Below, piece after piece: positions 13,389 through 29,445 of a stretch of DNA of 33,103 nt. The translations under genes were made by a program, and so were the position numbers. Numbering within the stretch: the stretch's first letter is position 1; every line of letters starts with the position of its first letter. The DNA is taken from positions 1-33,103 of the forward strand of contig CAIMDW010000005.1 of assembly GCA_903839895.1 (NCBI GenBank), in the 5' to 3' direction. The stretch comes from Candidatus Staskawiczbacteria bacterium. GTDB lineage: Bacteria > Patescibacteriota > Minisyncoccia > Minisyncoccales > Staskawiczbacteraceae. The notes below the pieces were generated by a model. The model made no database searches, was not told where the DNA came from, and saw only the letters and a list, made by a program, of their open reading frames with translations.

Positions 13389-13431
13389 AAGCCAAAGTAT
13401 GTTATTTGAAAATTTCATAAGGAGTATGGTT

Positions 13432-14838
13432 ATGATTGAAAATGATGAGGTTTTAATTAAATCGCGGTTTGTTCAAGTTGTTGAAGGTGGTGGTAATGCC
13501 ATAATATGGCATTCTCTTTTTGGAAATCCTAAGAGAGTCTCTGTGGATACGTTGGATTTGCTTAATATTTTTTCCAGCCCACTCTCATTAAATGACTTTC
13601 TAAATGAATATGATATTGGGGAAAATGGTATAGAGGTCATTAATGATTTGGCCGAAGCCCATTATATTATACCTAATGGTTTTGATGAGAGAGCACATCT
13701 GGAAACGATTACTCAGGAGCACGAGAAGGTCATTTCTGCTAGCCAGTTAGCTAGGCGGTTAGATTTGAAGCTTACAGAGGAATGCAATTTTCGCTGTAAA
13801 TACTGTATTCATTTTAAGAGCCTGGATATCTCCGACCGGATTAATAACCCCGAGAAGTTTATGTCGTGGGAAATCGCTAAACATGCTGTGGACGAATACG
13901 TATTACTAATGAAGCATCTAGACAAAAAAGTTTCAAGAATAACCTTTAGCGGTGGTGAGGTATTGCTTACCTGGGACATTCTTGAGCGGGTCGTGCTTTA
14001 CTATAAAGAACGATACGAGTTTGATTATCCGTGCAGTTATGCCATAATAACGAACGCGTCCTTGATAACTGTCGAGATTGCCAAGAAACTCAAGGAATAT
14101 CAGATTTCTGTCGCATCTAGTATTGATGGACTTGAACAAGTCAATGATCTGGTCAGAATCACTAAATCAGGAAGTGGAACATTCAATCGTATTGTTTGTG
14201 GTTTGGACAATCTGAAGGATCAAGGGGTCCCGGTCGATATGTGTATAACGGTTACCGACGACAATTTCCCATATATTGATGAACGCATGGTTGACTGGGC
14301 AGTTGAACGCGGAATGGATCATCTCAGGTTTACTCCAGACACTATAAACTTATTTAATATACCTGTTCAGGAGTTGGTAATATGGTTATTAAAACTCAGA
14401 GCGTATGGGAAAACGAAGGGAGTCGATGTGACAGGAGGCTGGCATCGCCCTTTTTCCAACTTCAATGACTCTGCGCTTGATAAGCTTTGCGGATATTGCA
14501 CCCCTATTTGCGGAGATACAATATCTGTCAGCCCTGCCGGTTTAATTTATGGATGTTGTTATAACACCAACAGTATTGGAAGCATAAAACAAATAGGTTG
14601 TCTTGGTAATGAGAAAAAATATCGGGAGATGATTTGTGATAATGTTGTTGGAAGAAGACGTGAGTGTTTTGATTGTGAAATAGAAGGACAGTGCATTGGA
14701 GGTTGCAGCATCACGCGTGAGTCCTCAACGGATGCGTCAAATCCGAAGGTAACACAAATGTGTGAATTGCATCGCCAAATGACTAGAGAATTATTACTTG
14801 AAGAACTTACTAATTGGAATTCTGACATTTTCAAATGA
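13432..14838 (+). CDS. radical SAM / SPASM-domain peptide-modifying enzyme with an N-terminal RRE-like (PqqD-like) region
   Basis: Radical SAM cluster motif CNFRCKYC (CX3CX2C). Complete SPASM motif: C-X9-G-X4-C (CGDTISVSPAGLIYGC), then C-X2-C-X5-C-X3-C (CFDCEIEGQCIGGC), then a later Cys (MCELH). About 110 aa precede the rSAM core. AAGGAG at 13419-13424 favours the ATG at 13432; the ORF is open from 13399. Confidence 0.9.
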   Translation: MIENDEVLIKSRFVQVVEGGGNAIIWHSLFGNPKRVSVDTLDLLNIFSSPLSLNDFLNEYDIGENGIEVINDLAEAHYIIPNGFDERAHLETITQEHEKVISASQLARRLDLKLTEECNFRCKYCIHFKSLDISDRINNPEKFMSWEIAKHAVDEYVLLMKHLDKKVSRITFSGGEVLLTWDILERVVLYYKERYEFDYPCSYAIITNASLITVEIAKKLKEYQISVASSIDGLEQVNDLVRITKSGSGTFNRIVCGLDNLKDQGVPVDMCITVTDDNFPYIDERMVDWAVERGMDHLRFTPDTINLFNIPVQELVIWLLKLRAYGKTKGVDVTGGWHRPFSNFNDSALDKLCGYCTPICGDTISVSPAGLIYGCCYNTNSIGSIKQIGCLGNEKKYREMICDNVVGRRRECFDCEIEGQCIGGCSITRESSTDASNPKVTQMCELHRQMTRELLLEELTNWNSDIFK

Positions 14839-14870: not shown

Positions 14871-15005
14871 ATGGACCATCAGTTAAAGACGGACCAACAA
14901 TCGAAGCAAAAGCCCAAGAAGACTTTAAAGCTTTCGGTTCAGGACATGCCCAAACAACAGACAATTGTCTGTGATCAGTATGGGAGTAGCTGCAACGGCT
15001 GTTAA
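14871..15005 (+). CDS. 44-aa candidate RiPP precursor peptide (not in the ORF track)
   Basis: My translation: MDHQLKTDQQSKQKPKKTLKLSVQDMPKQQTIVCDQYGSSCNGC*. A strong SD AGGGAGGTGA (14855-14864) sits upstream of the ATG. The ORF begins 33 nt after the rSAM stop and is followed by a strong terminator. It has a K/Q-rich leader-like N-terminus and 3 Cys in the last 11 residues. Confidence 0.6.
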   Translation: MDHQLKTDQQSKQKPKKTLKLSVQDMPKQQTIVCDQYGSSCNGC

Positions 15006-15025: not shown

Positions 15026-15062
15026 GCCCTATTTGGAATATTCCAAATAGGGCATTTTTATT
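15026..15062 (+). terminator. rho-independent terminator closing the rSAM-precursor operon
   Basis: gccctatttggaa (15026-15038) pairs perfectly with ttccaaatagggc (15041-15053), followed by atttttatt. Confidence 0.75.
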
Positions 15063-15067
15063 ACATA

Positions 15068-15096
15068 TTGATTGAAAAATTTTATTAAGATATAAT
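15068..15096 (+). promoter_or_regulatory. candidate sigma-70-type promoter for the membrane-protein / ATPase operon
   Basis: TTGATT (15068-15073), 17-nt spacer, consensus TATAAT (15091-15096), 20 nt before the ATG at 15117. Confidence 0.55.
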
Positions 15097-15116
15097 CAAT
15101 GAAATAAGACAAATTT

Positions 15117-15341
15117 ATGGATGTTTTCACAACAGGAATCATAACTCTATTGGCCGTTGCAGCGATTTTTTACATTATTTTGTTTTCTTTTATTTATTAC
15201 TGGCACTTAAAAAAAATAACTTATGTGGTGGTGCCCTTAATTTTCACATTTGAATTTTTTTTGACAGGATTTTTTATAGTCGCAATCGTTTCAATCATTC
15301 TTAACTATCTGCCCGTATTAATAAGGGCTCTCAATTTTTAG
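15117..15341 (+). CDS. small two-helix membrane protein, function unknown
   Basis: 74 aa with two long hydrophobic segments (GIITLLAVAAIFYIILFSFIYYW and VVVPLIFTFEFFLTGFFIVAIVSIIL). The stop is 2 nt before the next ATG. Confidence 0.55.
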   Translation: MDVFTTGIITLLAVAAIFYIILFSFIYYWHLKKITYVVVPLIFTFEFFLTGFFIVAIVSIILNYLPVLIRALNF

Positions 15342-15343
15342 CT

Positions 15344-16741
15344 ATGGCAGGTTTACCTAAATATTTATTTTGGTGGGAATGGGTGAGGAAGATTATTTGG
15401 GACCCCTTTTGGTGGCTGATTTTATTTGCAATTATCTTATGGGTTCCTTTTTTGCGTGTTTGGTGGTGGGTTGTTTTCCCATGGATGCTGATGGCGCAAT
15501 TGAAGACAGTTTATATTTGGTGGCTTAACTGGGATTTTGATTATGCAACAAAAAGGAAATGGGTGGTTTTGGAAGTCGTTCCGCCTAAAGAAATTTTAAT
15601 TCCATTGAAAGCAATGGAAGATGTTTTTGCGGCAATCTGGCCCTTAATGGACGTGGGAAACTTTAGGGAGAGATGGTGCGATGGTGAATTGGCGTATGGA
15701 CCATACTGGTGTTCGTGGGAAATTGTCAGCCTTGAGGGCGCGATACATTTTTATATAAGATGTTTACAGGAGCATCGCACTAGCATTGAGTCTGCGCTTT
15801 TCGGGCATTACCCCGATGCAGAAATTTATGAAGTGCCAGATTATGTGAAATTGGTCCCGCCCACCGTTCCGAATGACGAATGGGATATGTATGGCGAAGA
15901 CTGGGATTTAGTTGAGGATGATGCGTATCCAATAAAGACTTATGATACATTTTTTGAGCCTCAAGGTGAAAGGATTTCAGCTGAAGAAAAGAGGATGGAT
16001 CCAATTATTTCCTTACTGGAAGGAATGTCAAAACTTGGCCCTGGAGAGTATTATTGGGTACAGTTCACCACTGTTCCGGTTGGAAATATTGATGAACCGA
16101 ATTGGATGAAAGACGGGACTAAGATAATTAATAAGCTTGCGCAGAGGCCGGAAAAGAAAGTAACTAGCTTTTTTGATGATTTATTTAAAACTTTCAAAGA
16201 ATTGGCAATGGGTCCCAATAAAGAAGGTTCAGGAGAAGGCGCAAAATATTCCTGGGAGACGAATGAAGAAACGGGAGAGAAACAAATATCGCTGACTACC
16301 GGCGAGAGAGAGATTATTTTAAATGTTGAAAACAAATTAAAAAAGCCGATCTTTAGGACGAATATCCGCGGAGTTTATGTGGCCAAACGAGAAAACTGGA
16401 AGCCTGCAAACAGGATTGTGTTGAGAACTTACATGGGTCATTTTAGCACAGTAAACATGAATAGTTTCAGATTTCAGGCTAAAACAAGACCAAGGGTACA
16501 CTTTTTTATGAGGCAGAGAAGAGTTTTTTTGAGAGCCAGGAAAATGTTCAGGATGGCAGTTTTAAGATTTCCTCCGCTGTATCCCGACAGACGAAGTTTG
16601 TGCCCTATTTTGAGCACCGAAGAAATGGCTACGCTTTATCACCTCCCATTTAAAATTTCTGGAATGGTTGCCCAGTCTTTGCAGAAGATAGAATCGAAAA
16701 AATCCGGCCCACCACCGAATTTGCCGATTGAAGAATTATAA
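15344..16741 (+). CDS. membrane-anchored protein with a Trp-rich N-terminal TM region and a large soluble domain, function unknown
   Basis: 465 aa. The N-terminus YLFWWEWVRKIIWDPFWWLILFAIILWVPFLRVWWWVVFPWMLM is followed by a soluble region (VVLEVVPPKEILIPLKAMEDVF...SWEIVSLEGAIHFYIRC...YPDAEIYEVPDY...). I recognise no catalytic motif. Confidence 0.7.
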   Translation: MAGLPKYLFWWEWVRKIIWDPFWWLILFAIILWVPFLRVWWWVVFPWMLMAQLKTVYIWWLNWDFDYATKRKWVVLEVVPPKEILIPLKAMEDVFAAIWPLMDVGNFRERWCDGELAYGPYWCSWEIVSLEGAIHFYIRCLQEHRTSIESALFGHYPDAEIYEVPDYVKLVPPTVPNDEWDMYGEDWDLVEDDAYPIKTYDTFFEPQGERISAEEKRMDPIISLLEGMSKLGPGEYYWVQFTTVPVGNIDEPNWMKDGTKIINKLAQRPEKKVTSFFDDLFKTFKELAMGPNKEGSGEGAKYSWETNEETGEKQISLTTGEREIILNVENKLKKPIFRTNIRGVYVAKRENWKPANRIVLRTYMGHFSTVNMNSFRFQAKTRPRVHFFMRQRRVFLRARKMFRMAVLRFPPLYPDRRSLCPILSTEEMATLYHLPFKISGMVAQSLQKIESKKSGPPPNLPIEEL

Positions 16742-16752
16742 AAAAATTATTT

Positions 16753-18585
16753 ATGCCAAAGGATTTAACATTCGTTGCCAGAACAAACTTTCGCGGTGCC
16801 GAGCAAAAATTCGGGATTAGAAGGAAAGATAGGCGCCAGCACATGTATGTGATTGGGAAAACCGGAACCGGTAAAACCCAGTTTTTAAAGAACATGGCAA
16901 TGCAGGATATCCATAACGGCGAAGGGCTTGCCATTATAGATCCGCATGGAGAGTTTGTGGAAGAAATTTTAGACAGCATTCCGCCTCATCGGATGAATGA
17001 TGTGGTTTATTTTAATCCTGCGGACATGGATTTTCCAGTCAGCTTCAACATTATGGATGTTCCAGATCCGAGGTATAAGCACTTGATTGCTTCGGGTCTG
17101 ATTGGAATTTTCACTAAAATTTGGGCCAATGTTTGGTCAGCCAGAATGGAATATATTTTGGCTAATTGCATTTTGGCTTTGCTGGACACTCCAGGAACCA
17201 CGCTTTTGGGCATACCAAGAATGCTGGTTGACAGGGATTATCGGCAGAAAATCATCAACAATTTAAAAGACCCGGTTGTAAAATCATTTTGGGTCAACGA
17301 ATATGAAGAATGGGAACCGAGGTATAGGAATGAAGCAATAGCTCCTGTGCAAAACAAAGTGGGACAGTTTTTGAATGTTTCGTTTGTCAGGAATATTGTT
17401 GGTCAGGCGAAAAACACCATTGATATCGACGATATAATGAATAGCGGAAAAATTTTGCTGGTCAATGTTTCCAAAGGAAGAATTGGAGAAGATAATTCGG
17501 CTATTTTGGGAGCTATGCTTATTACAAAAATACAGCTGACGGCGATGGAGCGAGTCAGGATTCCCGAAGACGAAAGAAAAGATTTTTATCTGTATGTCGA
17601 CGAGTTCCAGAATTTTGCCACAGATTCTTTTGTGAATATTTTGTCTGAAGCCAGAAAATACCGCTTAGATTTGATTATTGCCCACCAATATGTCGGCCAG
17701 CTGGTTACAGATACGAGCACGGCAGTCAGAGATGCTGTTTTTGGAAATGTGGGAACTATGGCTGTATTTAGAGTGGGAGCGGAAGATGCGGAATTTTTAG
17801 AGAAAGAGTTTGTCCCGGAATTTGAGCAGACCGATTTGATCCGTTTGGATAACCGTAATGTTTATACAAAGCTGATGATAGATGGCATTACTTCCAGGCC
17901 ATTTTCAGCCACAACTATCACTATAGATCCAACTGTCAAAGACGATAAAAAAAGGGAAGAAATAATCAAGCAATCCAGGGCAAAGCATTCTAAAAGCGTA
18001 AAAGTGGTGGAAGATGAAATTAACCGATGGGCTTCAAATATGGAGGCTCTAAGCGTTCCTGCGAAAGGCACTCCCGATATTTCCAATCTCCAGGATTCCA
18101 AGCCATTTTACCAATCCAATAATCCGAAATCTCCTAGTTCGAATCAGACAAAGCTGTACGACGCCATTTGTTCCAATTGCGGGAAGGCTACGAAAGTTAT
18201 TTTTCCTCCAGAGCCAGGACGCGCTGTTTATTGCAAAGCTTGCCTAAAAAAAATGAAGGATGAAAAGCCGGTAAAATGGACAAATAATTCGCCTGCGCAA
18301 GCAAATGCGCCAGCGCATGCCGAGCCGTCGAGCCAGCAGGCAAATAAGCAGGCGGGCGATTCGGCTTTAGCGGATTTAGGCATAGAATTTTCCCAGACAA
18401 AAGCGCAAAAAATAGAAAATATCTCTTTTCATAATCCAAAACGTAACGAAGAACACCACGAAAAGCCGAAGAGAAAAGAAATAAATCTGTCTGATTTGAA
18501 AAAAGCGCTGGAAGAATCGTTGGAAAAAAAGGATGGAGGCAAAGAGGAAAAGCAAACGGATTCGGGCGAAACAGTCAAACTTTAA
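16753..18585 (+). CDS. VirD4/TraD/TrwB-like (type IV coupling protein family) P-loop ATPase with a C-terminal CxxC-x17-CxxC zinc-ribbon tail
   Basis: Walker A: VIGKTGTGKTQF. IIDPHGEF...VYFNPAD...PVSFN is a TrwB/TraD-like arrangement. Walker B: DFYLYVDEFQNF. Also ARKYRLDLIIAHQY. The tail contains CSNCGKATKVIFPPEPGRAVYCKAC plus a low-complexity K/E-rich end. No N-terminal TM helices. Confidence 0.8.
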   Translation: MPKDLTFVARTNFRGAEQKFGIRRKDRRQHMYVIGKTGTGKTQFLKNMAMQDIHNGEGLAIIDPHGEFVEEILDSIPPHRMNDVVYFNPADMDFPVSFNIMDVPDPRYKHLIASGLIGIFTKIWANVWSARMEYILANCILALLDTPGTTLLGIPRMLVDRDYRQKIINNLKDPVVKSFWVNEYEEWEPRYRNEAIAPVQNKVGQFLNVSFVRNIVGQAKNTIDIDDIMNSGKILLVNVSKGRIGEDNSAILGAMLITKIQLTAMERVRIPEDERKDFYLYVDEFQNFATDSFVNILSEARKYRLDLIIAHQYVGQLVTDTSTAVRDAVFGNVGTMAVFRVGAEDAEFLEKEFVPEFEQTDLIRLDNRNVYTKLMIDGITSRPFSATTITIDPTVKDDKKREEIIKQSRAKHSKSVKVVEDEINRWASNMEALSVPAKGTPDISNLQDSKPFYQSNNPKSPSSNQTKLYDAICSNCGKATKVIFPPEPGRAVYCKACLKKMKDEKPVKWTNNSPAQANAPAHAEPSSQQANKQAGDSALADLGIEFSQTKAQKIENISFHNPKRNEEHHEKPKRKEINLSDLKKALEESLEKKDGGKEEKQTDSGETVKL

Positions 18586-18592
18586 TCAAACT

Positions 18593-18622
18593 AAAAACCG
18601 CTTTAAATCTATGCGGTTTTTT
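18593..18622 (+). terminator. weak hairpin plus T-run between ATPase-1 and Cys-rich protein 1 (possible partial terminator)
   Basis: aaaaaccgc (18593-18601) pairs with gcggttttt (18613-18621) across an 11-nt loop. The GC core is short, so confidence is low. Confidence 0.3.
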
Positions 18623-18636
18623 GCTAAGATGAAAAA

Positions 18637-20358
18637 ATGAATAGAGAAATTAAACAATGTCAAAATTGCAAGCAGAGCTTTACCATCGAGCCCGACGATT
18701 TTGCGTTTTACGAAAAGTTAAAAGTGCCAGCTCCGACTTTTTGTCCCGATTGCCGGTATCAGCGGCGCATTGCAAACCGAAACGAATGGAATTTTTACAA
18801 GCGCGATTGCGGGCTTTGCAAAAAAAGCATGGTTTCTATTTATAATCCAGCTTATTTTGGGCCGGTGTATTGCAACGATTGCTGGTGGTCTGATAAATGG
18901 GACCCTCTGGCATACGGAAGAGATTTTGATTTTTCAAAAACTTTTTTTGAGCAGTTCTCCAAACTGCGTTTTGAAACACCCCGTATAACGTTGGCAAATT
19001 CGAAAAGCATTAATTCAGAATACAGCAACCAATCGGAAGAAAACAAGAATTGTTATATGGTTGTCGCCACTGGCACAAGCGAGAATTGCATGTATGGAAA
19101 TTGGTATCAAGGAAGCAAGGATTGCGTGGATTGCTGGGCGATGTACAAATGCGAAATTATGTATGAATCCCTGAACTGTCGAGATTGTTACAAATGTTTT
19201 TTTGTGGAAGACAACAAGGATTGCCACGATATGTATTTTTCAAAAGATTGCCGGCTGTGCAGTAATTGTTTTGGATGTGTCAGCTTGCGCGGGAAAACTT
19301 ATTGCTGGTTCAATGAACAGCTTTCTAAAGATGAATATCAAAAACGTCTGGCAGAAGTTTTATGGACTCAAGAAAATATTGATAATCTGAGAAAAAAGCT
19401 TGATGAGTTTTCGCTTCAGAAACCGGTGAAATTTGAGCATAGCTATACAAAAAACGAAAATTCAACGGGAGATTACATTGGCGGAAATAAAAACGTGCAT
19501 TACGGATTCAATGCTAGGCTTTCTGAAAATTTAAAGTTTGGGCAAGATGCCTGGGAAGCGCGCGATTGTATGGACCTTACAGAAACTTTAGACAATGAAT
19601 TGGAATATGAAGGCGAGGGTTCCGGGTGGGGAAATAGGAACATAGCTTCTGCAAAATCTTGGTGGAATAACGACGCGTTGTATTCTGATTTGAATTTTAA
19701 TTGCAATAATATTTTTGGATGCGTTTCGCTTCATGCAAAGTCATACTGTATTTTAAACAAGCAATATTCTGAAAAAGAATATTATGATTTGAAAGAAAAG
19801 ATAATTGCTCACATGAGAAAAAATGGGGAATGGGGCGAATTTTTCCCAGCTGAAATATCGCCGTTTCCATATAATGATTCTTTGGCTCAGGATTATTTTC
19901 CAATGACAAAAGATGAAGTTATTGCGAAAGGATTGAGATGGCACGACCGCGATGCCAGGGATTACAAAGTTACTTTGCCTCACGAAAATCTTCCCGAAAA
20001 AATAGGCGACGCAAGCGATTCTATTCTTAAAGAAGTTATAAGTTGCAGTTTACATGGTTTTCGATGCGCGACAGCTTTTAGGCTGCACCCAGCCGAGCTT
20101 CAATTCTATCGACAGTTTAATTTGCCAATTCCGCACAAGTGCTTTCCTTGCAGGCTTCAGGAAAGATTGGCAAGGCGCAACCCGCGCAAGCTTTGGCACC
20201 GCCAGTGCATGTGCCTGCCTGCCGGCAGGCAGGCGACAAACACTGCCAAACATTTCCATGGCGATAAACCTTGTCCTAACGAATTTGAAACTAGTTATGC
20301 TCCCGACAGGCCGGAAATTGTTTATTGCGAAGAGTGCTACAATAAAGAAGTAGCTTAA
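18637..20358 (+). CDS. cysteine-rich multi-zinc-ribbon protein, paralog 1 (function unknown)
   Basis: 573 aa with about 35 Cys by my count. The N-terminus has four CxxC pairs (CQNC...CPDC...CGLC...CNDC). The central module NCFGCVSLRGKTYCWFNEQLSKDEY recurs as NIFGCVSLHAKSYCILNKQYSEKEY. C-terminal: AFRLHPAELQFYRQFNLPIPHKCFPCR...YCEECYNKEVA. Confidence 0.85.
   Translation: MNREIKQCQNCKQSFTIEPDDFAFYEKLKVPAPTFCPDCRYQRRIANRNEWNFYKRDCGLCKKSMVSIYNPAYFGPVYCNDCWWSDKWDPLAYGRDFDFSKTFFEQFSKLRFETPRITLANSKSINSEYSNQSEENKNCYMVVATGTSENCMYGNWYQGSKDCVDCWAMYKCEIMYESLNCRDCYKCFFVEDNKDCHDMYFSKDCRLCSNCFGCVSLRGKTYCWFNEQLSKDEYQKRLAEVLWTQENIDNLRKKLDEFSLQKPVKFEHSYTKNENSTGDYIGGNKNVHYGFNARLSENLKFGQDAWEARDCMDLTETLDNELEYEGEGSGWGNRNIASAKSWWNNDALYSDLNFNCNNIFGCVSLHAKSYCILNKQYSEKEYYDLKEKIIAHMRKNGEWGEFFPAEISPFPYNDSLAQDYFPMTKDEVIAKGLRWHDRDARDYKVTLPHENLPEKIGDASDSILKEVISCSLHGFRCATAFRLHPAELQFYRQFNLPIPHKCFPCRLQERLARRNPRKLWHRQCMCLPAGRQATNTAKHFHGDKPCPNEFETSYAPDRPEIVYCEECYNKEVA
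18678..18710 (+). repeat. 33-nt exact DNA repeat, copy A (partner at 24038-24070)
   Basis: ctttaccatcgagcccgacgattttgcgtttta is identical in paralogs 1 and 3 and encodes FTIEPDDFAFY. Confidence 0.9.
20213..20234. repeat. 22-bp perfect GC-rich palindrome inside Cys-rich paralog 1
   Basis: gcctgcctgcc/ggcaggcaggc is self-complementary. It lies in a locally GC-rich patch of an AT-rich genome and in a segment absent from paralog 3. Confidence 0.9.
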
Positions 20359-20469
20359 AGGTCGAGGTTATTTAAGCGAATAAGGCATCGCCGTCATTAA
20401 AGCAGTAGGGCAATCGATATATTATACTTTAATTTCGGCGTGAATTTACTCGCTTGCTCATAAATTCAT

Positions 20470-20775
20470 ATGATCTTTATTTATGTGCCGTGCCAGAATT
20501 TGGATACGGCTAAAAATATTGCTAAGCTTTTGGTGGAAAAGAGGATGGCGGGCAAGGTGGATATTTTGCCTACCGATTCTTTTTTTCGCGCTGGCGAAAA
20601 TGTCGCCGAGGTTGCGGGGGCGGCCATGATTATTATGACCATAGACAAACATGTCCAAGATATAGAGGATGTTGTCAGGGAACATTATCAAGATGGCGTC
20701 CCTTGCATGGCCACAATTTCTTTGTATCGGCTGAATCGCGACTTTAAAGACTGGCTGATTGCTGCCACTGACTAG
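20470..20775 (+). CDS. cutA: CutA1-like divalent-cation tolerance family protein
   Basis: 101 aa. IFIYVPCQNLDTAKNIAKLLVEKRMAGKVDILP...MIIMTIDKHVQDIEDVVREHYQDGVPCMATISLYRLNRDFKDWL follows the CutA1 pattern (v-T-x-p-x-x-x-A-x-x-i-a-x-x-L-v-e-x-r-l-A-x-C-v-n-i..., H-p-Y-e-x-P-e-i, y-x-x-W-l). Confidence 0.55.
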   Translation: MIFIYVPCQNLDTAKNIAKLLVEKRMAGKVDILPTDSFFRAGENVAEVAGAAMIIMTIDKHVQDIEDVVREHYQDGVPCMATISLYRLNRDFKDWLIAATD

Positions 20776-20779
20776 GAGA

Positions 20780-20808
20780 TTGATAAAATTGCCTTAAAAA
20801 GCTATTAT
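20780..20808 (+). promoter_or_regulatory. candidate sigma-70-type promoter for the second ATPase / Cys-rich module
   Basis: TTGATA (20780-20785), 17-nt spacer, TATTAT (20803-20808), 35 nt before the ATG at 20844. Confidence 0.45.
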
Positions 20809-20843
20809 TAGAAAATAGTTAAAGTCTTAAATTACAAACTTTC

Positions 20844-22307
20844 ATGTCAGCTGAAAACAATAGAATTCGCAGGTTTAAATTGGCGCCTCCTCCACCGGAG
20901 TTGCCTATTTATGGTTCAGTAGACCCCAAAGAATGCTCATTTATTGGCAAGACCAATTATGAAGCGGCTTTGCAGGAGCAAAAGTTCATTTTTGGGGTAA
21001 AAAGGGTGGACAGGCGCAGGCATTTGTATATTGTGGGAAAATCCGGAGTGGGAAAGTCAAAGCTTTTGGAGCTTTTTGTGCGCCAAGACATTGGGTACGG
21101 CCACGGGCTTTGCTTTATCGATCCTCACGGAGATGTTATTGATGCAATCTTGGATTTTATTCCGGAAAACCGAATTGACGACGTGGTGCTTATTGACCCA
21201 TCCGACTCCAAGTATCCAATTTCATTTAACCCCTTGGCAAATATAGACCCAAGCTTCAAGCACCAGCTCACGCAGGGCTTGATTGAGGTGCTAGAAAGGC
21301 AATTTGGCGCCAACTGGACACCCAGGCTTGAGCACGTGTTCCGCTTTACTTGCCTGGCTCTCTTGGATTATCCTCACGGCACTATGCGAGGCATGATTTC
21401 CATGCTTACCGACAGGAATTATCGACAGCTTGTGGTGGAATATATTCAAGACGACATGGTAAAACGCTTTTGGGCCATTGAATTTGCCGATTGGTCGGAA
21501 AAGTACGATACGGAAGCCATTATTCCATTGGTAAACAAATTGGCGCAATTTTTATCTGACCCTGCATTGCGCGGAATTTTTGGCCAAGAAGAAAACAAGG
21601 TTGATTTGGCAAAGCTGATGAATGAAGGGAAAATTATTTTGATAAACTTGTCCAAAGGAAAATTGGGAGAAGAAAATGCCAGCTTTTTCGGCTCAATGTT
21701 TATTACAAAAATAAAGCAGGCTGGCATGGAGCGCGCATCTCTTGCTGAAGACGAAAGAAAAGATTTTTACCTTTATGTCGACGAGTTCCATAACTTAATG
21801 ACTGAAACTTTTGAGAATATATTGTCTGAAGCCAGAAAATACGGCATCTGTCTTACCGTTGCTCACCAGTACATGGGCCAATTATTGCAAAAAGTCCAAC
21901 AGGCGGTTTTGGGAAACACGGGAACTATTATTGTCTTCCGCGTGGGCGGTGAGGATGCAGTCAGATTGGAACCTGAAATGGCACCAATATTCGGAGTCAA
22001 AGATATGGTAAACTTGGGAGTCCAGAATTTTTACATAAAAGAAACAATTGACGGAGAGGCTTATGATCCTTTTTCTGCTGAAACATTAAGCGTTTTGAAA
22101 CCGAATCACAGGTCTTTTAAAAAAGAAATTATTGATATGTCGCGTGAAAAGTATACTATTCCGGCCGAAGCGGCGCAAAAACTTATGCAACAGGAAGAAT
22201 CAAAAATTATGAGAAGCTCGCACGAAAAATCCATAATCCAGGGAAAAGGTAAAGGCCCGGAGGAAACCAAAAAACCGGAAGAAAAGACAGAAGAACCATT
22301 AATATAA
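20844..22307 (+). CDS. VirD4/TraD/TrwB-like P-loop ATPase, paralog 2 (no zinc-ribbon tail)
   Basis: Walker A: IVGKSGVGKSKL. Also FIDPHGDV...VLIDPSD...PISFNPL. Walker B: DFYLYVDEFHNL. Also ARKYGICLTVAHQY. Colinear with ATPase-1, including nucleotide-identical stretches (gaagacgaaagaaaagattttta at 17566-17588 and 21747-21769). Confidence 0.8.
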   Translation: MSAENNRIRRFKLAPPPPELPIYGSVDPKECSFIGKTNYEAALQEQKFIFGVKRVDRRRHLYIVGKSGVGKSKLLELFVRQDIGYGHGLCFIDPHGDVIDAILDFIPENRIDDVVLIDPSDSKYPISFNPLANIDPSFKHQLTQGLIEVLERQFGANWTPRLEHVFRFTCLALLDYPHGTMRGMISMLTDRNYRQLVVEYIQDDMVKRFWAIEFADWSEKYDTEAIIPLVNKLAQFLSDPALRGIFGQEENKVDLAKLMNEGKIILINLSKGKLGEENASFFGSMFITKIKQAGMERASLAEDERKDFYLYVDEFHNLMTETFENILSEARKYGICLTVAHQYMGQLLQKVQQAVLGNTGTIIVFRVGGEDAVRLEPEMAPIFGVKDMVNLGVQNFYIKETIDGEAYDPFSAETLSVLKPNHRSFKKEIIDMSREKYTIPAEAAQKLMQQEESKIMRSSHEKSIIQGKGKGPEETKKPEEKTEEPLI

Positions 22308-22317
22308 AATAAATTTT

Positions 22318-23979
22318 ATGCAGCCAGAAACAAAACAATGCGAAAAGTGTAAAAAGGATTTTGACATTTTGGCAGATGATATTCCGTTTTATGAAAAAAT
22401 GGATTTGCCTTTGCCGGCAATGTGTCCGACTTGCCGATTCAAATATCTTTTGGCATTTTGGACGTTTGGCAGATTTAGGATTGCCAAGTCCGCTTTGAGT
22501 GGAAAAACAATCATAACGGTCCTTCCAGAATCTGTTCCTTTTCCCATTTACGACCGCGCAGAATTTGTTTCGGACGACTGGGACCCACTAACTTATGGAA
22601 AAGATTATGACGCCTCGCGCCCTTTTATGGACCAGCTTGTTGAATTGCAATCAAAAGTTCCACATCCCCATCAATGCGGAGTTAAGAATTTGAATTGTGA
22701 CTGGACTGATGATGTTTGGGAATCAAAAGATGTGTATTTATCCAGGTCAGGAGCCTGGTGTGAATCCATAAATTATAGTTATCGCATGGTTAGTTCTAAA
22801 AATTGTACTGACCTCACTTATTGTTGGGAGCTTGAATATTGTTATGATTGCTTATATTGTTTCAAAAGTTATAATTTGAAATACTCTTTCAATTCTCGAG
22901 ATTGCATGGACAGCTTATTTTTATACGACTGCAGAAATTGCCAGAATTGCTTTATGTGCTGGAATTTAAGGAACCAGAAATATTGCATTTTAAACCAGCA
23001 ATATTCAAAAGAAGAGTACGAAAAAAAGATTCAAGAATACAATTTAAAATCAAGAAAGGAGATAGAGGAATTAAGAAAAGAATTTTGGCAGCATATCCGA
23101 CAAGATGCCGTGCATCGCGAAAATTGCGATGTCAAAGCAGTAAACTCCGTAGGAAATTTTCTTAACAATGATAAAAATTGTTATCAATGCCATTTCATTG
23201 AAAATTCCGAGAACAGCCGTTATACTTTGCGAGGTTGGGGAGGAAACGAAGATATTGATGTTATAGGTCCATACAATACAGAAAAATGCGGCACATGTTC
23301 AATGGATCAATATGGCTACGGAAATGTATGTAATCTTTATACAACTTCATGCCGATACTCTGTTTACTTGGATAATTGCGAGGAATCTGAATATTGTTTC
23401 GGATGCGTGGGGCTTAGAAAGAAAAAATATTGCATTTTGAACAAGCAATACACCGAAGAAGAATATAAAAATCTGGTTGAAAAAATTAAAAGTGATATGA
23501 AAAATAGGGGAGAATGGGGGAAATTTTGGCCGCTTTCTTCAGCCTATGCAGGCTACAACCTTTCTTTAGCTCAAATGCAATATCCAATGGCAAAGGATGA
23601 AGCTGTACAATTTGGCGCAAAATGGGAAGAAATTATCGAGCCTCACTATGAAAATATTGTCAGCGGAGATGATTTGCCAGATACAATCGGCGAGGTGGGC
23701 GATGAAATTGTAAAACAGCGCATACTGTGCCCCGAAACAAAATTGAGCTATAATATTACCAAAGAGGAATTGCAGTTTTACCGCGAGTACGGCATTCCGC
23801 TTCCAAGCAGGCATTTTGACTGGCGCACTTTGGAACGATTCAAACCCTTCAGCCAAATGGTAACTTTGCAAAAAGGAACTTGCCATTACTGCAAAAAAGA
23901 AATTGAGCATTATTACAGCCCCGAGCTTGGCTTCGAAAAAATAGCCTGCCTGGAATGCTACCAGCGCGAAGTGGCGTAA
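22318..23979 (+). CDS. cysteine-rich multi-zinc-ribbon protein, paralog 2
   Basis: 553 aa. CEKCKKDFDILADDIPFYEKMDLPLPAMCPTCR...; NCQNCFMCWNLRNQKYCILNQQYSKEEY and YCFGCVGLRKKKYCILNKQYTEEEY; C-terminal ELQFYREYGIPLPSRHF...CHYCKKE...CLECYQREVA. Confidence 0.85.
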   Translation: MQPETKQCEKCKKDFDILADDIPFYEKMDLPLPAMCPTCRFKYLLAFWTFGRFRIAKSALSGKTIITVLPESVPFPIYDRAEFVSDDWDPLTYGKDYDASRPFMDQLVELQSKVPHPHQCGVKNLNCDWTDDVWESKDVYLSRSGAWCESINYSYRMVSSKNCTDLTYCWELEYCYDCLYCFKSYNLKYSFNSRDCMDSLFLYDCRNCQNCFMCWNLRNQKYCILNQQYSKEEYEKKIQEYNLKSRKEIEELRKEFWQHIRQDAVHRENCDVKAVNSVGNFLNNDKNCYQCHFIENSENSRYTLRGWGGNEDIDVIGPYNTEKCGTCSMDQYGYGNVCNLYTTSCRYSVYLDNCEESEYCFGCVGLRKKKYCILNKQYTEEEYKNLVEKIKSDMKNRGEWGKFWPLSSAYAGYNLSLAQMQYPMAKDEAVQFGAKWEEIIEPHYENIVSGDDLPDTIGEVGDEIVKQRILCPETKLSYNITKEELQFYREYGIPLPSRHFDWRTLERFKPFSQMVTLQKGTCHYCKKEIEHYYSPELGFEKIACLECYQREVA

Positions 23980-23996
23980 AATAAATAATAAAGTAT

Positions 23997-25652
23997 ATGC
24001 AACAAGAAACAAAAAATTGTCAGAATTGCAAAAAGGACTTTACCATCGAGCCCGACGATTTTGCGTTTTATGAAAAAATGAAAGTGCCAGCGCCGACGTG
24101 GTGTCCAGATTGCAGAATGATGAGGCGGATGATGTGGAGGAATGACCGAATGCTGTATAAAAGGAAGTGCGACGCTACGGGAGCTGACATTATATCCATA
24201 TTTGCTCCCGATGCTCCTTATAAAATTTATGAGGCTGAATACTGGAGAAGTGACGCTTGGGACCCGATGGATTATGGCCGCGACTATGATTTTTCAGCGC
24301 CTTTTTTTGTTCAATTCAATAAGCTTTTTACCGAAATTCCGCATCCAAATCTGGTCCAGAAAAATGTTGTAAACAGCGAATTTTCGTACGGCTTGAACCT
24401 AAAAAATTGTTATTGGGTTGGGGGTTCGGACGGCGCAGAGGACAGCGCTTATCTTTTTTCACCCATTTTGCAGGCACGAAACTGTTTTGATTTGCATTCT
24501 GCCGGAGATGTTGAGTATTGCTATGATTCTGTGGATATAGAAAAATCCAGCGGACTTCGTTTTTGCCAAAATTGCGTGGCGTGCAGTGATTCTTGGTTGC
24601 TTTACGACTGCCGTAATTGCACAAGCTGTTTTGGATGCGTGGGTTTGCGCAATAAAAATTTTCATATTTTTAATAAATCTTATTCCCGCGAAGAATACAT
24701 TAAAGAAATAGAAAAAATATCCCCAAGCACATTTGAAGGGATTTTACGCGCGAAAGAAAAATTTAACGAACTTAAATTAAAATTTCCTCACAAATTTGCC
24801 AATATACAAAAATCAGAGAACGTAACGGGAGACGACATATTAAATTCCAAGGATTGCAAATATTGCTTCAATGTGAAGAATGATACCCAAAACTGCAAAT
24901 ATGGATTTAGGATACTGGGCGCCAAAGACGGCCATGATGCGACAATCGCCTGGGGAGGCGCAGAGCAATTTTATGATTCTGAAAGTATTACAGCCAGCAG
25001 GGTTGTAGGTTCTTATGTGGCATGGGGAGGATTTGATATTTTTCATTCATATGACTGCTACGATTGCAATAATATTTTTGGGTGCGTAGGATTGCGAAAT
25101 AAATCTTATTGCGTTTTAAACAAGCAATATACAAAAAGAGAGTACGAAGAGTTGGTGCAAAAAATTATCGCGCACATGTACGAAATGCCATATGTCGATC
25201 CAAAAGGAAGCACGTATAAATACGGTGATTTTTTTCCGCCGGAGTTTTCTCCTTTTTCTTATAATGAAACCATCGCTCAAGATTATCTTCCCAAAACAAA
25301 AGAGGAGGTTTTGAAGGTGGGATTTAAATGGCGCGAGTCGGAAAATAAGCAATATAAAATTACAGAAGGAATTTATGAATGCGAACATAAAGGCAAATGT
25401 AATGATCATTGTGCTACTGCGTTTCGCATTGTGCCGCAAGAGCTGCAATTTTTAAAGAAAATGGGTTTACCACTACCTAGACTATGCCCCTTCTGCCGAC
25501 AGGCGGAGCGGATTCGTCTAAAAAATCCTCTTCATCTTTGGTATCGCCAGTGCATGAAGCCTGGGTGCCAAAACGAATTTGAAACCAGTTATTCTCTCGA
25601 CAGGCCAGAAATCGTGTATTGCGAAAGTTGTTATAATAATGAAGTGGCGTAG
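23997..25652 (+). CDS. cysteine-rich multi-zinc-ribbon protein, paralog 3
   Basis: 551 aa. CQNCKKDFTIEPDDFAFYEKMKVPAPTWCPDCR...; NCTSCFGCVGLRNKNFHIFNKSYSREEY and NIFGCVGLRNKSYCVLNKQYTKREY; C-terminal AFRIVPQELQFLKKMGLPLPRLCPFCR...CQNEFETSYSLDRPEIVYCESCYNNEVA. Confidence 0.85.
   Translation: MQQETKNCQNCKKDFTIEPDDFAFYEKMKVPAPTWCPDCRMMRRMMWRNDRMLYKRKCDATGADIISIFAPDAPYKIYEAEYWRSDAWDPMDYGRDYDFSAPFFVQFNKLFTEIPHPNLVQKNVVNSEFSYGLNLKNCYWVGGSDGAEDSAYLFSPILQARNCFDLHSAGDVEYCYDSVDIEKSSGLRFCQNCVACSDSWLLYDCRNCTSCFGCVGLRNKNFHIFNKSYSREEYIKEIEKISPSTFEGILRAKEKFNELKLKFPHKFANIQKSENVTGDDILNSKDCKYCFNVKNDTQNCKYGFRILGAKDGHDATIAWGGAEQFYDSESITASRVVGSYVAWGGFDIFHSYDCYDCNNIFGCVGLRNKSYCVLNKQYTKREYEELVQKIIAHMYEMPYVDPKGSTYKYGDFFPPEFSPFSYNETIAQDYLPKTKEEVLKVGFKWRESENKQYKITEGIYECEHKGKCNDHCATAFRIVPQELQFLKKMGLPLPRLCPFCRQAERIRLKNPLHLWYRQCMKPGCQNEFETSYSLDRPEIVYCESCYNNEVA
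24038..24070 (+). repeat. 33-nt exact DNA repeat, copy B (partner at 18678-18710)
   Basis: Same 33-mer as copy A. The flanks stay highly similar for roughly another 25 nt (aaagtgccagc.ccgac). Confidence 0.9.
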
Positions 25653-29057: not shown

Positions 29058-29090
29058 CAAAAAACAGGACTTAAAGTTCTGTTTTTTGTT
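29058..29090. terminator. bidirectional rho-independent terminator (serves the small membrane gene on + and rnpB on -)
   Basis: caaaaaacaggac (29058-29070) pairs with gttctgttttttg (29076-29088), with one G-U pair and a 5-nt loop. There are A-runs and T-runs on both sides. Confidence 0.7.
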
Positions 29091-29091
29091 G

Positions 29092-29445
29092 TTCTGGCAA
29101 GACTATAAGCCGAATTCTGTTTTATGCGATTATCTGTCTTGGCCAAAAATTGCTTTTTGGCTCTGGCGAACTACTTTTAACCCTTTTCACTGATGAAACA
29201 ATGATATAGGCTTTGTTCTTGCACCCAGTAAGGATTTAGCCGTTTCATTCTTGCATTGCTGCAAAACTATCCCGCGGGGGGATGCAAAATCTTTTCAAAT
29301 TTTGCCGTTTCTGTTCGCACCTCTGCTTTACAGCAGACGGCCGTTAGCCGCTAAATTTTTAGAGCTGCTTTCGCAGCAATTGGTGTTCGGACTTTCCTCC
29401 TCGCTCAGCTAAAGCTTTGCGGGGCAATCGCTCATCTTGCCAAAA
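29092..29445 (-). ncRNA. rnpB: RNase P RNA, bacterial type A
   Basis: The minus strand reads ...GAGCGAGGAGGAAAGUCCGAACACC... (the universally conserved GGAAAGUCCG region) and ...AGAUAAUCGCAUAAAACAGAAUUCGGCUUAUAG... (conserved ACAGAA-N-CGGCUUA region). 5' GGCAAGA and 3' UCUUGCC form helix P1. Length is about 354 nt, and no credible ORF covers the 490-nt gap. Confidence 0.88.

Follow-up and report, generated by a model that had tools for sequence, protein, structure and literature searches.

The stretch of DNA analysed here, hereafter the window, comprises 33,103 nucleotides of contig CAIMDW010000005.1 from a Candidatus Staskawiczbacteria bacterium (assembly GCA_903839895.1), and it carries a locus of eight proteins, all encoded on the forward strand between positions 15117 and 25652. 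The first two genes encode a 74-residue protein with two hydrophobic segments (15117-15341), which matches no Pfam or NCBIfam model, and a 465-residue protein of the DUF8128 family (PF26449; 15344-16741), the proposed membrane anchor and partner of the long-type ATPase that follows. This ATPase, A610 (610 residues; 16753-18585), resembles type IV coupling proteins (T4CPs) and carries a zinc ribbon and a Lys/Glu-rich tail. Next come C573, a Cys-rich protein of 573 residues with 35 Cys (18637-20358), a 101-residue homolog of CutA1, a PII-like small protein (20470-20775), and a second T4CP-like ATPase, A487, which is of the short type and has no zinc ribbon (487 residues; 20844-22307). Two further Cys-rich paralogs, C553 (553 residues, 34 Cys; 22318-23979) and C551 (551 residues, 31 Cys; 23997-25652), complete the locus, and pgk starts 30 bp downstream. 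An open reading frame (ORF) map and BLASTP gave the coordinates, sizes, paralogy and motifs of the eight genes as described in an earlier interpretation made from the DNA letters alone (the sequence-only reading), except that Cys-rich proteins of 550-573 residues are not giant, as it had called them. It had also presented the locus as an orphan. Instead, the locus belongs to a widespread, syntenic Patescibacteria module, and the scans of related genomes reported below show a chromosomally fixed, Patescibacteria-specific set of co-located genes. The closest named homologs come from Candidatus Staskawiczbacteria and other Parcubacteria.

Two subtypes of coupling protein-like ATPases

Both ATPases pass the Pfam gathering thresholds of T4CP families with their motifs intact, in agreement with their earlier placement in the TraD/TrwB/VirD4 family. 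TrwB_AAD_bind is matched at 55.1 bits by A610 and at 39.7 bits by A487 (gathering threshold 20.5), TraG-D_C at 26.4 and 30.6 bits by the two ATPases (cut-off 22) and T4SS-DNA_transf at 24.6 bits by A487 (cut-off 20.1), and the best solved relative of both is TrwB. Both proteins carry the motifs GK(T/S)GxGK(T/S), DFYLYVDEF and AHQY, and over 20 ATPase homologs the Walker A, Walker B and HQ residues do not vary. The curated T4CP equivalogs of NCBIfam were not reached (55.7 bits against 366 for SXT_TraD and 47.8 against 250 for CD1115), NCBIfam matches to the DNA translocases CedD and CedB are weak, and pairwise BLASTP of A610 with the Ti VirD4 and VirB4 proteins gave nothing informative. Neither ATPase has a transmembrane (TM) segment, no 19-residue window of A610 or A487 rising above a Kyte-Doolittle value of 1.6, which bears out the claim that they lack TM helices.

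A487 and A610 are paralogs with 47% identity (BLASTP, E 1e-136). In A610, a linker leads to a CxxC-x17-CxxC treble-clef ribbon at residues 467-502 (nt 18151-18258), which scores 45.1 bits with zf_Tbcl_2 of Pfam (threshold 27) and 44.9 bits with TIGR04272 of NCBIfam (threshold 36). The N-terminal RRFKLAPPPPELPIYG extension of A487 matches the tail of the DUF8128 protein. Short-type ATPases start with ...IIKYxPPPPELP(V/I)(F/Y)G-x5-(E/D)VxFxGRTNY, and all 28 short-type N-termini that were inspected, from 31 ATPases classed as short-type, fit ...PP(P/S/L)x(E/D)L(P/A)..G...(V/C)xF(I/F)G(R/K)TNY. Long-type ATPases start directly at M-x-KD-x-T-x-x-A-x-TNF, just before the P-loop domain. The DUF8128 tail together with the long-ATPase N-terminus is collinear with the short-ATPase N-terminus, which is what gene fission or fusion would leave. 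Judged from these alignments, the shared motif suggests such a history or, alternatively, a common docking peptide. Where the sequence-only reading had seen a repeated unit of ATPase and Cys-rich gene, there are in fact two old ATPase subtypes, a long one with a zinc ribbon and a short one with a PPPPELP N-terminus, co-occurring across lineages. The short type scores slightly better with TrsK and the long type slightly better with TrsE; since all of these scores lie at just 4-13 bits, they are not used as evidence.

DUF8128 and the small membrane proteins

The 465-residue protein contains 25 Trp and a single long N-terminal hydrophobic stretch, which forms two helices in its AlphaFold2 (AF2) model. 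In DUF8128, a Trp-rich TM hairpin at the N-terminus is followed by a cytoplasmic alpha/beta domain and, at the C-terminus, by the tail KKSGPPPNLPIEEL. Its assignment comes from precomputed PF26449 labels on many homologs at 64-77% identity, and the syntenic gene of one relative (L006) bears the same label. A family profile search among 1.84 billion representative sequences returned 1,663 clusters at E ≤ 1e-3, including 634 at E ≤ 1e-30, and nearly all full-length matches listed measure 410-520 residues, the longest few reaching 550. At their C-terminus, DUF8128 proteins read ...(E/D)xKKxGPPxxLPxE; in 68 of 96 diverse members PPxxLP falls within the final 48 residues, usually 1-3 residues before the C-terminus. 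In the window, the C-terminus with this tail motif is encoded at 16690-16741 and its counterpart at the A487 N-terminus at 20844-20990, the element KxxPPPxxLP(I/V)(Y/F)G being common to the DUF8128 tail and the N-termini of short-type ATPases. AF2 produced a weak model of DUF8128 (pLDDT 57.8, pTM 0.60). With this model, the 13 best Foldseek matches in the PDB were all TrwK/VirB4 chains of the R388 type IV secretion system (T4SS), at E 1e-3 to 1.6e-2 and TM-scores of 0.26-0.33. Literature searches found no publication on DUF8128; Pfam lists the family, but it is unstudied.

The 74-residue protein is kept directly upstream of DUF8128 solely in close, Staskawiczbacteria-like relatives. It gave no sequence match to VirB3 or TrsC and was not detected in most distant loci. 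In several lineages a protein of ~170 residues with an N-terminal TM segment (family f23) is encoded between DUF8128 and the ATPase (L009, L016, L062, L076, L091, L099, L122, L129 and L146), and it may be an alternative to the 74-residue protein of the window.

A conserved core and an accessory block

A scan of metagenome contigs seeded with the ATPases yielded 100 ATPase genes in 80 loci. Directly upstream of 30 of these genes lies DUF8128, which is separated from five more by f23 only and occurs in 36 of the 80 loci altogether. The gap between the DUF8128 and ATPase genes has a median of 14 bp, and several pairs overlap. The proposal that the ATPases receive their TM anchor in trans is well supported for DUF8128, given this upstream position and the collinearity of its tail; the 74-residue protein is conserved in close relatives only.

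Loci with about 50% identity to the window read SecD-SecF-sigma-DUF8128-ATPase(zinc ribbon)-PGK-DHH-RNase H-MurJ-LepA, and the synteny sigma-DUF8128-ATPase-PGK-DHH-MurJ is conserved. The block C573-CutA-A487-C553-C551 is missing between the long ATPase and pgk in the distant collinear relatives, so that the locus is a composite of a conserved core and an accessory block. The core layer, recurrent across Patescibacteria, consists of DUF8128 and the TM-less long ATPase, and the accessory layer consists of CutA, the short ATPase and the Cys-rich proteins. In agreement with the sequence-only reading, no T4SS, conjugation, pilus or competence gene was found in the window: the other ORFs scanned contain no VirB4, relaxase, integrase, pilin or Com domain. 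In 166 related loci, single-sequence queries with the pSK41 Trs proteins, an insensitive search, likewise revealed no VirB/Trs homologs.

A large family of Cys-rich zinc proteins

The three Cys-rich proteins of the window are paralogs, with 41% identity between C551 and C573 (E 2e-140), 32% between C553 and C573 (E 4e-97) and 32% between C551 and C553 (E 2e-82; all BLASTP), and each is 70-76% identical to its orthologs. One search recovered at least 6,938 clusters of the family at 90% identity, all unnamed or "hypothetical", and those with an organism name belong nearly all to Parcubacteria or Patescibacteria. When one genome per GTDB species was scanned, at least 592 relatives were confirmed; 80 of them, all from Patescibacteria metagenome-assembled genomes, were kept with ±10 kb on each side and gave 79 distinct loci. 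These loci hold 1 to 11 Cys-rich copies each, with two or more in 51 of the 79, and adjacent copies are separated by a median gap of 29 bp. On an 844-kb contig, a single array of 12 copies reads m-DUF8128-ATPase-C×8-CutA-ATPase-C-C-HTH-C-C (C, Cys-rich gene); at ~1.7 kb per gene its Cys-rich genes amount to roughly 20 kb, a large genomic investment.

C573 starts with a treble clef at the N-terminus and continues with a second ribbon, a pair of duplicated solenoid-like modules of ~115 residues and two C-terminal zinc ribbons. The internal duplication aligns residues ~130-242 with ~278-390 (hhalign probability 99.9%, E 1.6e-35), and the duplicated centre of the Cys-rich proteins has a sequence period of ~12 residues, which suggests a solenoid. 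Over 222 members, the conserved Cys are C8/11/36/39, C205/208/211/214 with C362/371, C470/477/502/505 and C524/546/564/567, a pattern amounting to about four tetra-Cys sites, including a CxxCxxCxxC. The second N-terminal ribbon is found in about 54% of the members, and the Cys at positions 150-190 are variable. The family, made up of predicted cytoplasmic proteins, is mildly acidic (median isoelectric point (pI) 6.3 over the 222 members), with a basic C-terminal part in C573 (pI about 9), and the Cys-rich proteins of the window have no TM or signal-like segment.

The AF2 model of the Cys-rich protein is confident (pLDDT 80.6, pTM 0.81). Foldseek found nothing for it in the PDB at E ≤ 0.001, and among the viral models of BFVD just zinc-ribbon or zinc-finger matches of ~45-110 residues (best E 1.6e-3). 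The hidden Markov model (HMM) profile of the family had zero matches among PDB sequences. A Pfam scan of 35 members returned zf_Tbcl in 16, zf_Tbcl_2 in 10 and nothing else meaningfully recurrent, and neither the core nor its duplicated central modules match a Pfam family. For the Cys-rich proteins the matches to zf_Tbcl_2 and TIGR04272 are sub-threshold or at family level only. These models (zf_Tbcl, PF13451; zf_Tbcl_2, PF23477; TIGR04272), which match both the A610 ribbon and the Cys-rich termini, are small modules of unknown function that cover less than 20% of the Cys-rich protein length. Literature searches found no publication on PF13451, PF23477, TIGR04272 or Cys-rich Parcubacteria families. 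The core of these proteins is thus uncatalogued, and the family is very large and without structural or functional precedent. A relation to the CxxCxGxG domain of DnaJ was also considered, and hhalign against such a DnaJ showed none.

Association of the ATPases with Cys-rich, cutA and chaperone genes

In an unbiased gene clustering of the 79 Cys-rich-seeded loci, the ATPase was the top family other than the Cys-rich one (26 loci), followed by DnaK (14) and DnaJ (9); labelling with phmmer placed an ATPase in 25 of the 79. Of 34 ATPase genes in this comparison, 21 have a same-strand Cys-rich gene no more than 400 bp away. The estimated chance of finding an ATPase in a random 22-kb window is about 5%, assuming genomes near 0.8 Mb with about two such ATPases each, as the survey PMC12102498 indicates. 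Conversely, a Cys-rich gene is present in 22 of the 80 ATPase-seeded loci. Arrangements vary by lineage, for instance D-A-C, D-C-C-A-CutA-C and dnaK-A-C-A-dnaJ (D, DUF8128; A, ATPase; C, Cys-rich), and this variation argues against a simple inherited order. The claimed pairing of ATPase and Cys-rich gene is therefore a real association and not an obligatory one: the adjacency is meaningful but facultative, as the counts of unpaired loci given below make clear.

The zinc-ribbon module that the two families were said to share is indeed detectable. The ribbon of the long ATPases matches the final ribbon in the HMM of the Cys-rich family, at positions ~523-566, with independent E-values of 5e-5 to 1e-3 for nine ATPases. 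The ribbon alone is common to both families, and no full fusion of ATPase and Cys-rich protein exists.

The 101-residue protein matches CutA1 (PF03091) at 55 bits (gathering threshold 22.4) and does not reach the NCBIfam equivalog (46.7 against 120). In relatives, CutA recurs beside ATPases rather than beside Cys-rich genes in general, and the short ATPase usually lies near the core of DUF8128 and long ATPase, often with CutA adjoining. In L006, a nucleotidyltransferase/HepT-like toxin-antitoxin pair is located between CutA and the short ATPase (18137-18764). In L116, L131, L096 and L006, a DUF5674 gene and a gene of ~97-108 residues fill the Cys-rich slot between or after the ATPases.

A further arrangement, grpE-C-C-(PaaX-like, opposite strand)-dnaK-long ATPase-C(s)-short ATPase-dnaJ, recurs in many Paceibacteria-type loci of both scans (e.g. 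L037, L055, L079, L100, L102-L107, L111, L116 and L131). DnaK or DnaJ is encoded in 16 of the 80 ATPase-seeded loci, and DnaK in 14 of the 79 seeded with Cys-rich proteins. This interleaving with grpE-dnaK-dnaJ points to protein handling and not to DNA transfer. In the window itself, dnaK is missing and a search for the CIRCE heat-shock operator found none.

Relation to known systems

The locus ATPases have the same FtsK/HerA-superfamily P-loop domain as the T4CPs VirD4, TrwB and TraD, and their C-terminal extension could serve partner recognition as the TraD tail does. They differ from T4CPs in that the N-terminal TM domain is missing, in their division into two subtypes, in their fixed housekeeping synteny and in that no VirB/mating-pair formation (MPF) or relaxase genes are linked to them. 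Hence, they resemble and descend from T4CPs, yet show neither the TM domain, nor the scores of the curated equivalogs, nor the MPF/relaxase linkage. Given the housekeeping neighbours, the fixed synteny and the lack of relaxase and VirB genes in the window, the locus is not a conjugation module. A survey of Patescibacteria (Quinonero-Coronel et al. 2025, PMC12102498) counted 5,713 VirD4-like genes in 2,918 genomes, 148 of them near virB4, and raised their exaptation as a possibility. The locus ATPases are very probably among the orphan VirD4-like genes of that survey, whose passages on such genes mention no partners of the kind found here, namely DUF8128, the split into short and long types, CutA, the Cys-rich family or the linkage to the dnaK operon. 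As far as those passages go, the orphan VirD4-like genes were already known, as was DUF8128 as a Pfam entry, and what is new is a putatively exapted T4CP system with new partners.

DUF8128 can be compared with the VirB4 branch as well. In pSK41 and pGO1, TrsC-TrsD-TrsE (VirB3-like, VirB4-N-domain-like and VirB4) follow the same order of a small TM protein, a non-ATPase protein and an ATPase. The best fold matches of the DUF8128 model, weak as they are (TM-score about 0.3, pLDDT 58), are to TrwK/VirB4, which recalls the VirB3-VirB4 pair of R388 and Ti, and the collinearity of the DUF8128 tail with the ATPase N-terminus suggests a once-continuous protein. Against this, neither VirB4 nor TrsD has sequence-level similarity to DUF8128, and by profile scores the locus ATPases are nearer to T4CPs than to VirB4. 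A split VirB4 is a lead and not a result. By analogy only, the Cys-rich proteins recall the effectors of the Xanthomonas X-T4SS (XVIPCD; PMC8740702), diverse proteins encoded near a coupling protein that have a common C-terminal module, by which VirD4 recognises them. The Cys-rich proteins differ in being conserved throughout, in having a zinc ribbon as the common module and in the absence of toxin domains and immunity genes.

Possible function and alternative explanations

With a probability of roughly 0.4, we read the locus as encoding an exapted, membrane-tethered, T4CP-derived motor that handles the Cys-rich zinc proteins as clients or adaptors. In such a machine DUF8128 would tether a hexameric ATPase ring to the membrane and stand in for the N-terminal TM domain that canonical T4CPs have and these ATPases lack, or else for VirB3 and the VirB4 N-domain, with the PPxxLP peptide as a putative docking element. 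The zinc ribbon of the long ATPase could be the handle by which Cys-rich proteins are recognised, and these proteins would be either the cargo of an ATP-driven step of threading or translocation or adaptors specific to its clients, with the Hsp70 system perhaps keeping them competent for that step. A bolder version seems doubtful to us: DUF8128 and both ATPases would form a self-contained, hitherto unrecognised translocation apparatus of Patescibacteria, an energy centre of the VirB4/VirD4 kind that arose by fission and has a membrane subunit of its own, and the thousands of zinc-solenoid proteins would be its Hsp70-assisted cargo or adaptors in episymbiotic host interaction. In most Patescibacteria, a T4SS is usually encoded near oriC, according to the relevant passages of PMC12102498 and PMC12857230; the motor may feed this T4SS or work on its own, with DUF8128 itself as the possible exit route.

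Several observations weigh against a motor that handles the Cys-rich proteins. Of the 80 ATPase loci, 32 have DUF8128 but lack a Cys-rich gene within ±6 kb, and of the 79 Cys-rich loci, 54 lack an ATPase within ±10 kb. The loci lack phylogenetic independence, and the linkage to DnaK could be synteny inherited within Paceibacteria. Conservation of the Cys-rich paralogs extends over their full length (about 50% identity across orders), unlike in typical secreted effectors, and stably folded multi-zinc proteins would be awkward cargo for a narrow ATPase channel. As to DUF8128, its VirB4-like fold depends on a model with a pLDDT of 57.8, on borderline E-values and on TM-scores of about 0.3; hhalign comparisons with Ti VirB4, pSK41 TrsD and TrsE gave probabilities below 1%, and the DUF8128 profile found no VirB4-type match among PDB sequences. 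Binding, translocation and activity are inferred.

Four other explanations were weighed against this motor. The ATPases may have kept the ancestral DNA or RNA pumping of the T4CP/FtsK/HerA group and act in uptake, export or segregation at the membrane, with the zinc-ribbon proteins as nucleic-acid-binding adaptors. The T4CP ancestry, the weak CedD and CedB matches and the basic C-terminal part of C573 are in keeping with this, and treble-clef and zinc-ribbon modules commonly bind nucleic acids. Patescibacteria also need external nucleotides, as passages of PMC12102498 and PMC12857230 indicate. However, the Cys-rich proteins are mildly acidic overall, no linkage to relaxase, nuclease, ComEC or recombinase genes was seen in the window or in the 79 Cys-rich loci, and the recurrent operon partners are genes of the Hsp70 system and not of DNA metabolism, so that we consider a nucleic-acid machine unlikely. 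It is somewhat less probable again that there is no mechanistic coupling at all, the Cys-rich family being an independent tandem expansion in a permissive region by the DUF8128-ATPase unit and the dnaK operon, with cooperation between DUF8128 and the ATPase just by themselves. This would account for the Cys-rich loci without a nearby ATPase, among them arrays of up to 11 copies (L030), and for DUF8128-ATPase-PGK loci entirely devoid of the accessory block; moreover, the counts of association overstate independence, since the loci are related by descent. It accords poorly with the ATPase being the most frequent non-self neighbour family, with an adjacency that recurs in differing arrangements and with the homologous zinc ribbon common to both families.

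The conserved presence of CutA1 in the cluster, the roughly four conserved tetra-Cys sites with their CxxCxxCxxC and the co-located stress chaperones could instead speak for metal or redox buffering, in which the Cys-rich proteins and CutA would be zinc, copper or iron-sulfur stores or redox-sensitive holdases and the ATPases a separate matter. This is improbable in our view: the conserved Cys follow canonical structural ribbon patterns while many other Cys are variable (25-40% conservation), CutA adjoins the ATPases and not Cys-rich genes in general, and the function of CutA itself is poorly defined. An anti-phage or conflict system, made of a HerA/T4CP-like ATPase and diversified paralog arrays, is the least probable of all and hardly to be expected. 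The ATPases do show weak PADLOC matches to mad8, HerA and DndH models, and tandem paralog arrays are common in conflict systems, but PADLOC matches none of the six non-ATPase proteins of the locus (among them DUF8128, CutA and the Cys-rich proteins), the synteny is that of fixed housekeeping genes and not of an island, the paralogs are old and individually conserved, and nuclease or toxin domains are absent. Accordingly, the defence-type module that the sequence-only reading had listed among its candidates found no support, no PADLOC system being detected.

The motor reading bears on a wider puzzle, in that the tiny Patescibacteria genomes hold about two VirD4-like genes each, almost never beside a T4SS, as reported in passages of PMC12102498. 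For these orphan coupling ATPases of the candidate phyla radiation, the locus and its relatives provide testable partners in DUF8128, the second ATPase subtype, CutA and the zinc-protein family, and the interleaving with chaperone genes shifts the expected role toward protein handling. If the machine does move Cys-rich proteins, it would represent a new route by which a major part of bacterial diversity interacts with hosts.

Other features of the window

Upstream of the locus, a terminator-like perfect hairpin of 14+14 nt with a T-run (15026-15053, forward strand) closes the preceding operon. It is followed by a sigma-70-like promoter match, TTGATT-17-TATAAT (15068-15096, forward strand; 10 of 12 positions), and a second one, TTGATA-17-TATTAT (20780-20808, forward strand), precedes A487. 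Both are intergenic and both exist as consensus matches only; overall, such sites are not significantly enriched in the region (36 observed against 27.5±5.1 expected). Between the C573 stop codon and cutA lies an imperfect inverted repeat of 29 nt, 72% complementary (20374-20455), which could act as an internal terminator or attenuator before the second promoter-like site.

Outside the locus the window carries housekeeping genes, for arginine decarboxylase, deoxyhypusine synthase, SecA, SecDF, a sigma-like protein, PGK, a DHH protein, an M23 peptidase, RNase P RNA and MurJ. The RNase P RNA is of bacterial class A (29090-29443, reverse strand; 122 bits, E 4e-37), which is consistent with a chromosomal housekeeping context. 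Upstream of the perfect hairpin, a PapB-like radical SAM/SPASM maturase (NF047865, E 9e-36) is encoded at 13399-14838 on the forward strand, and in the syntenic relatives L004-L006 this position holds no gene that Pfam annotates as radical SAM. Directly after it comes an ORF of 44 residues (MDHQLKTDQQSKQKPKKTLKLSVQDMPKQQTIVCDQYGSSCNGC; 14871-15005, forward strand) with a GGAGG ribosome-binding site, which is probably a Cys-containing precursor of a ribosomally synthesised and post-translationally modified peptide paired with its maturase.

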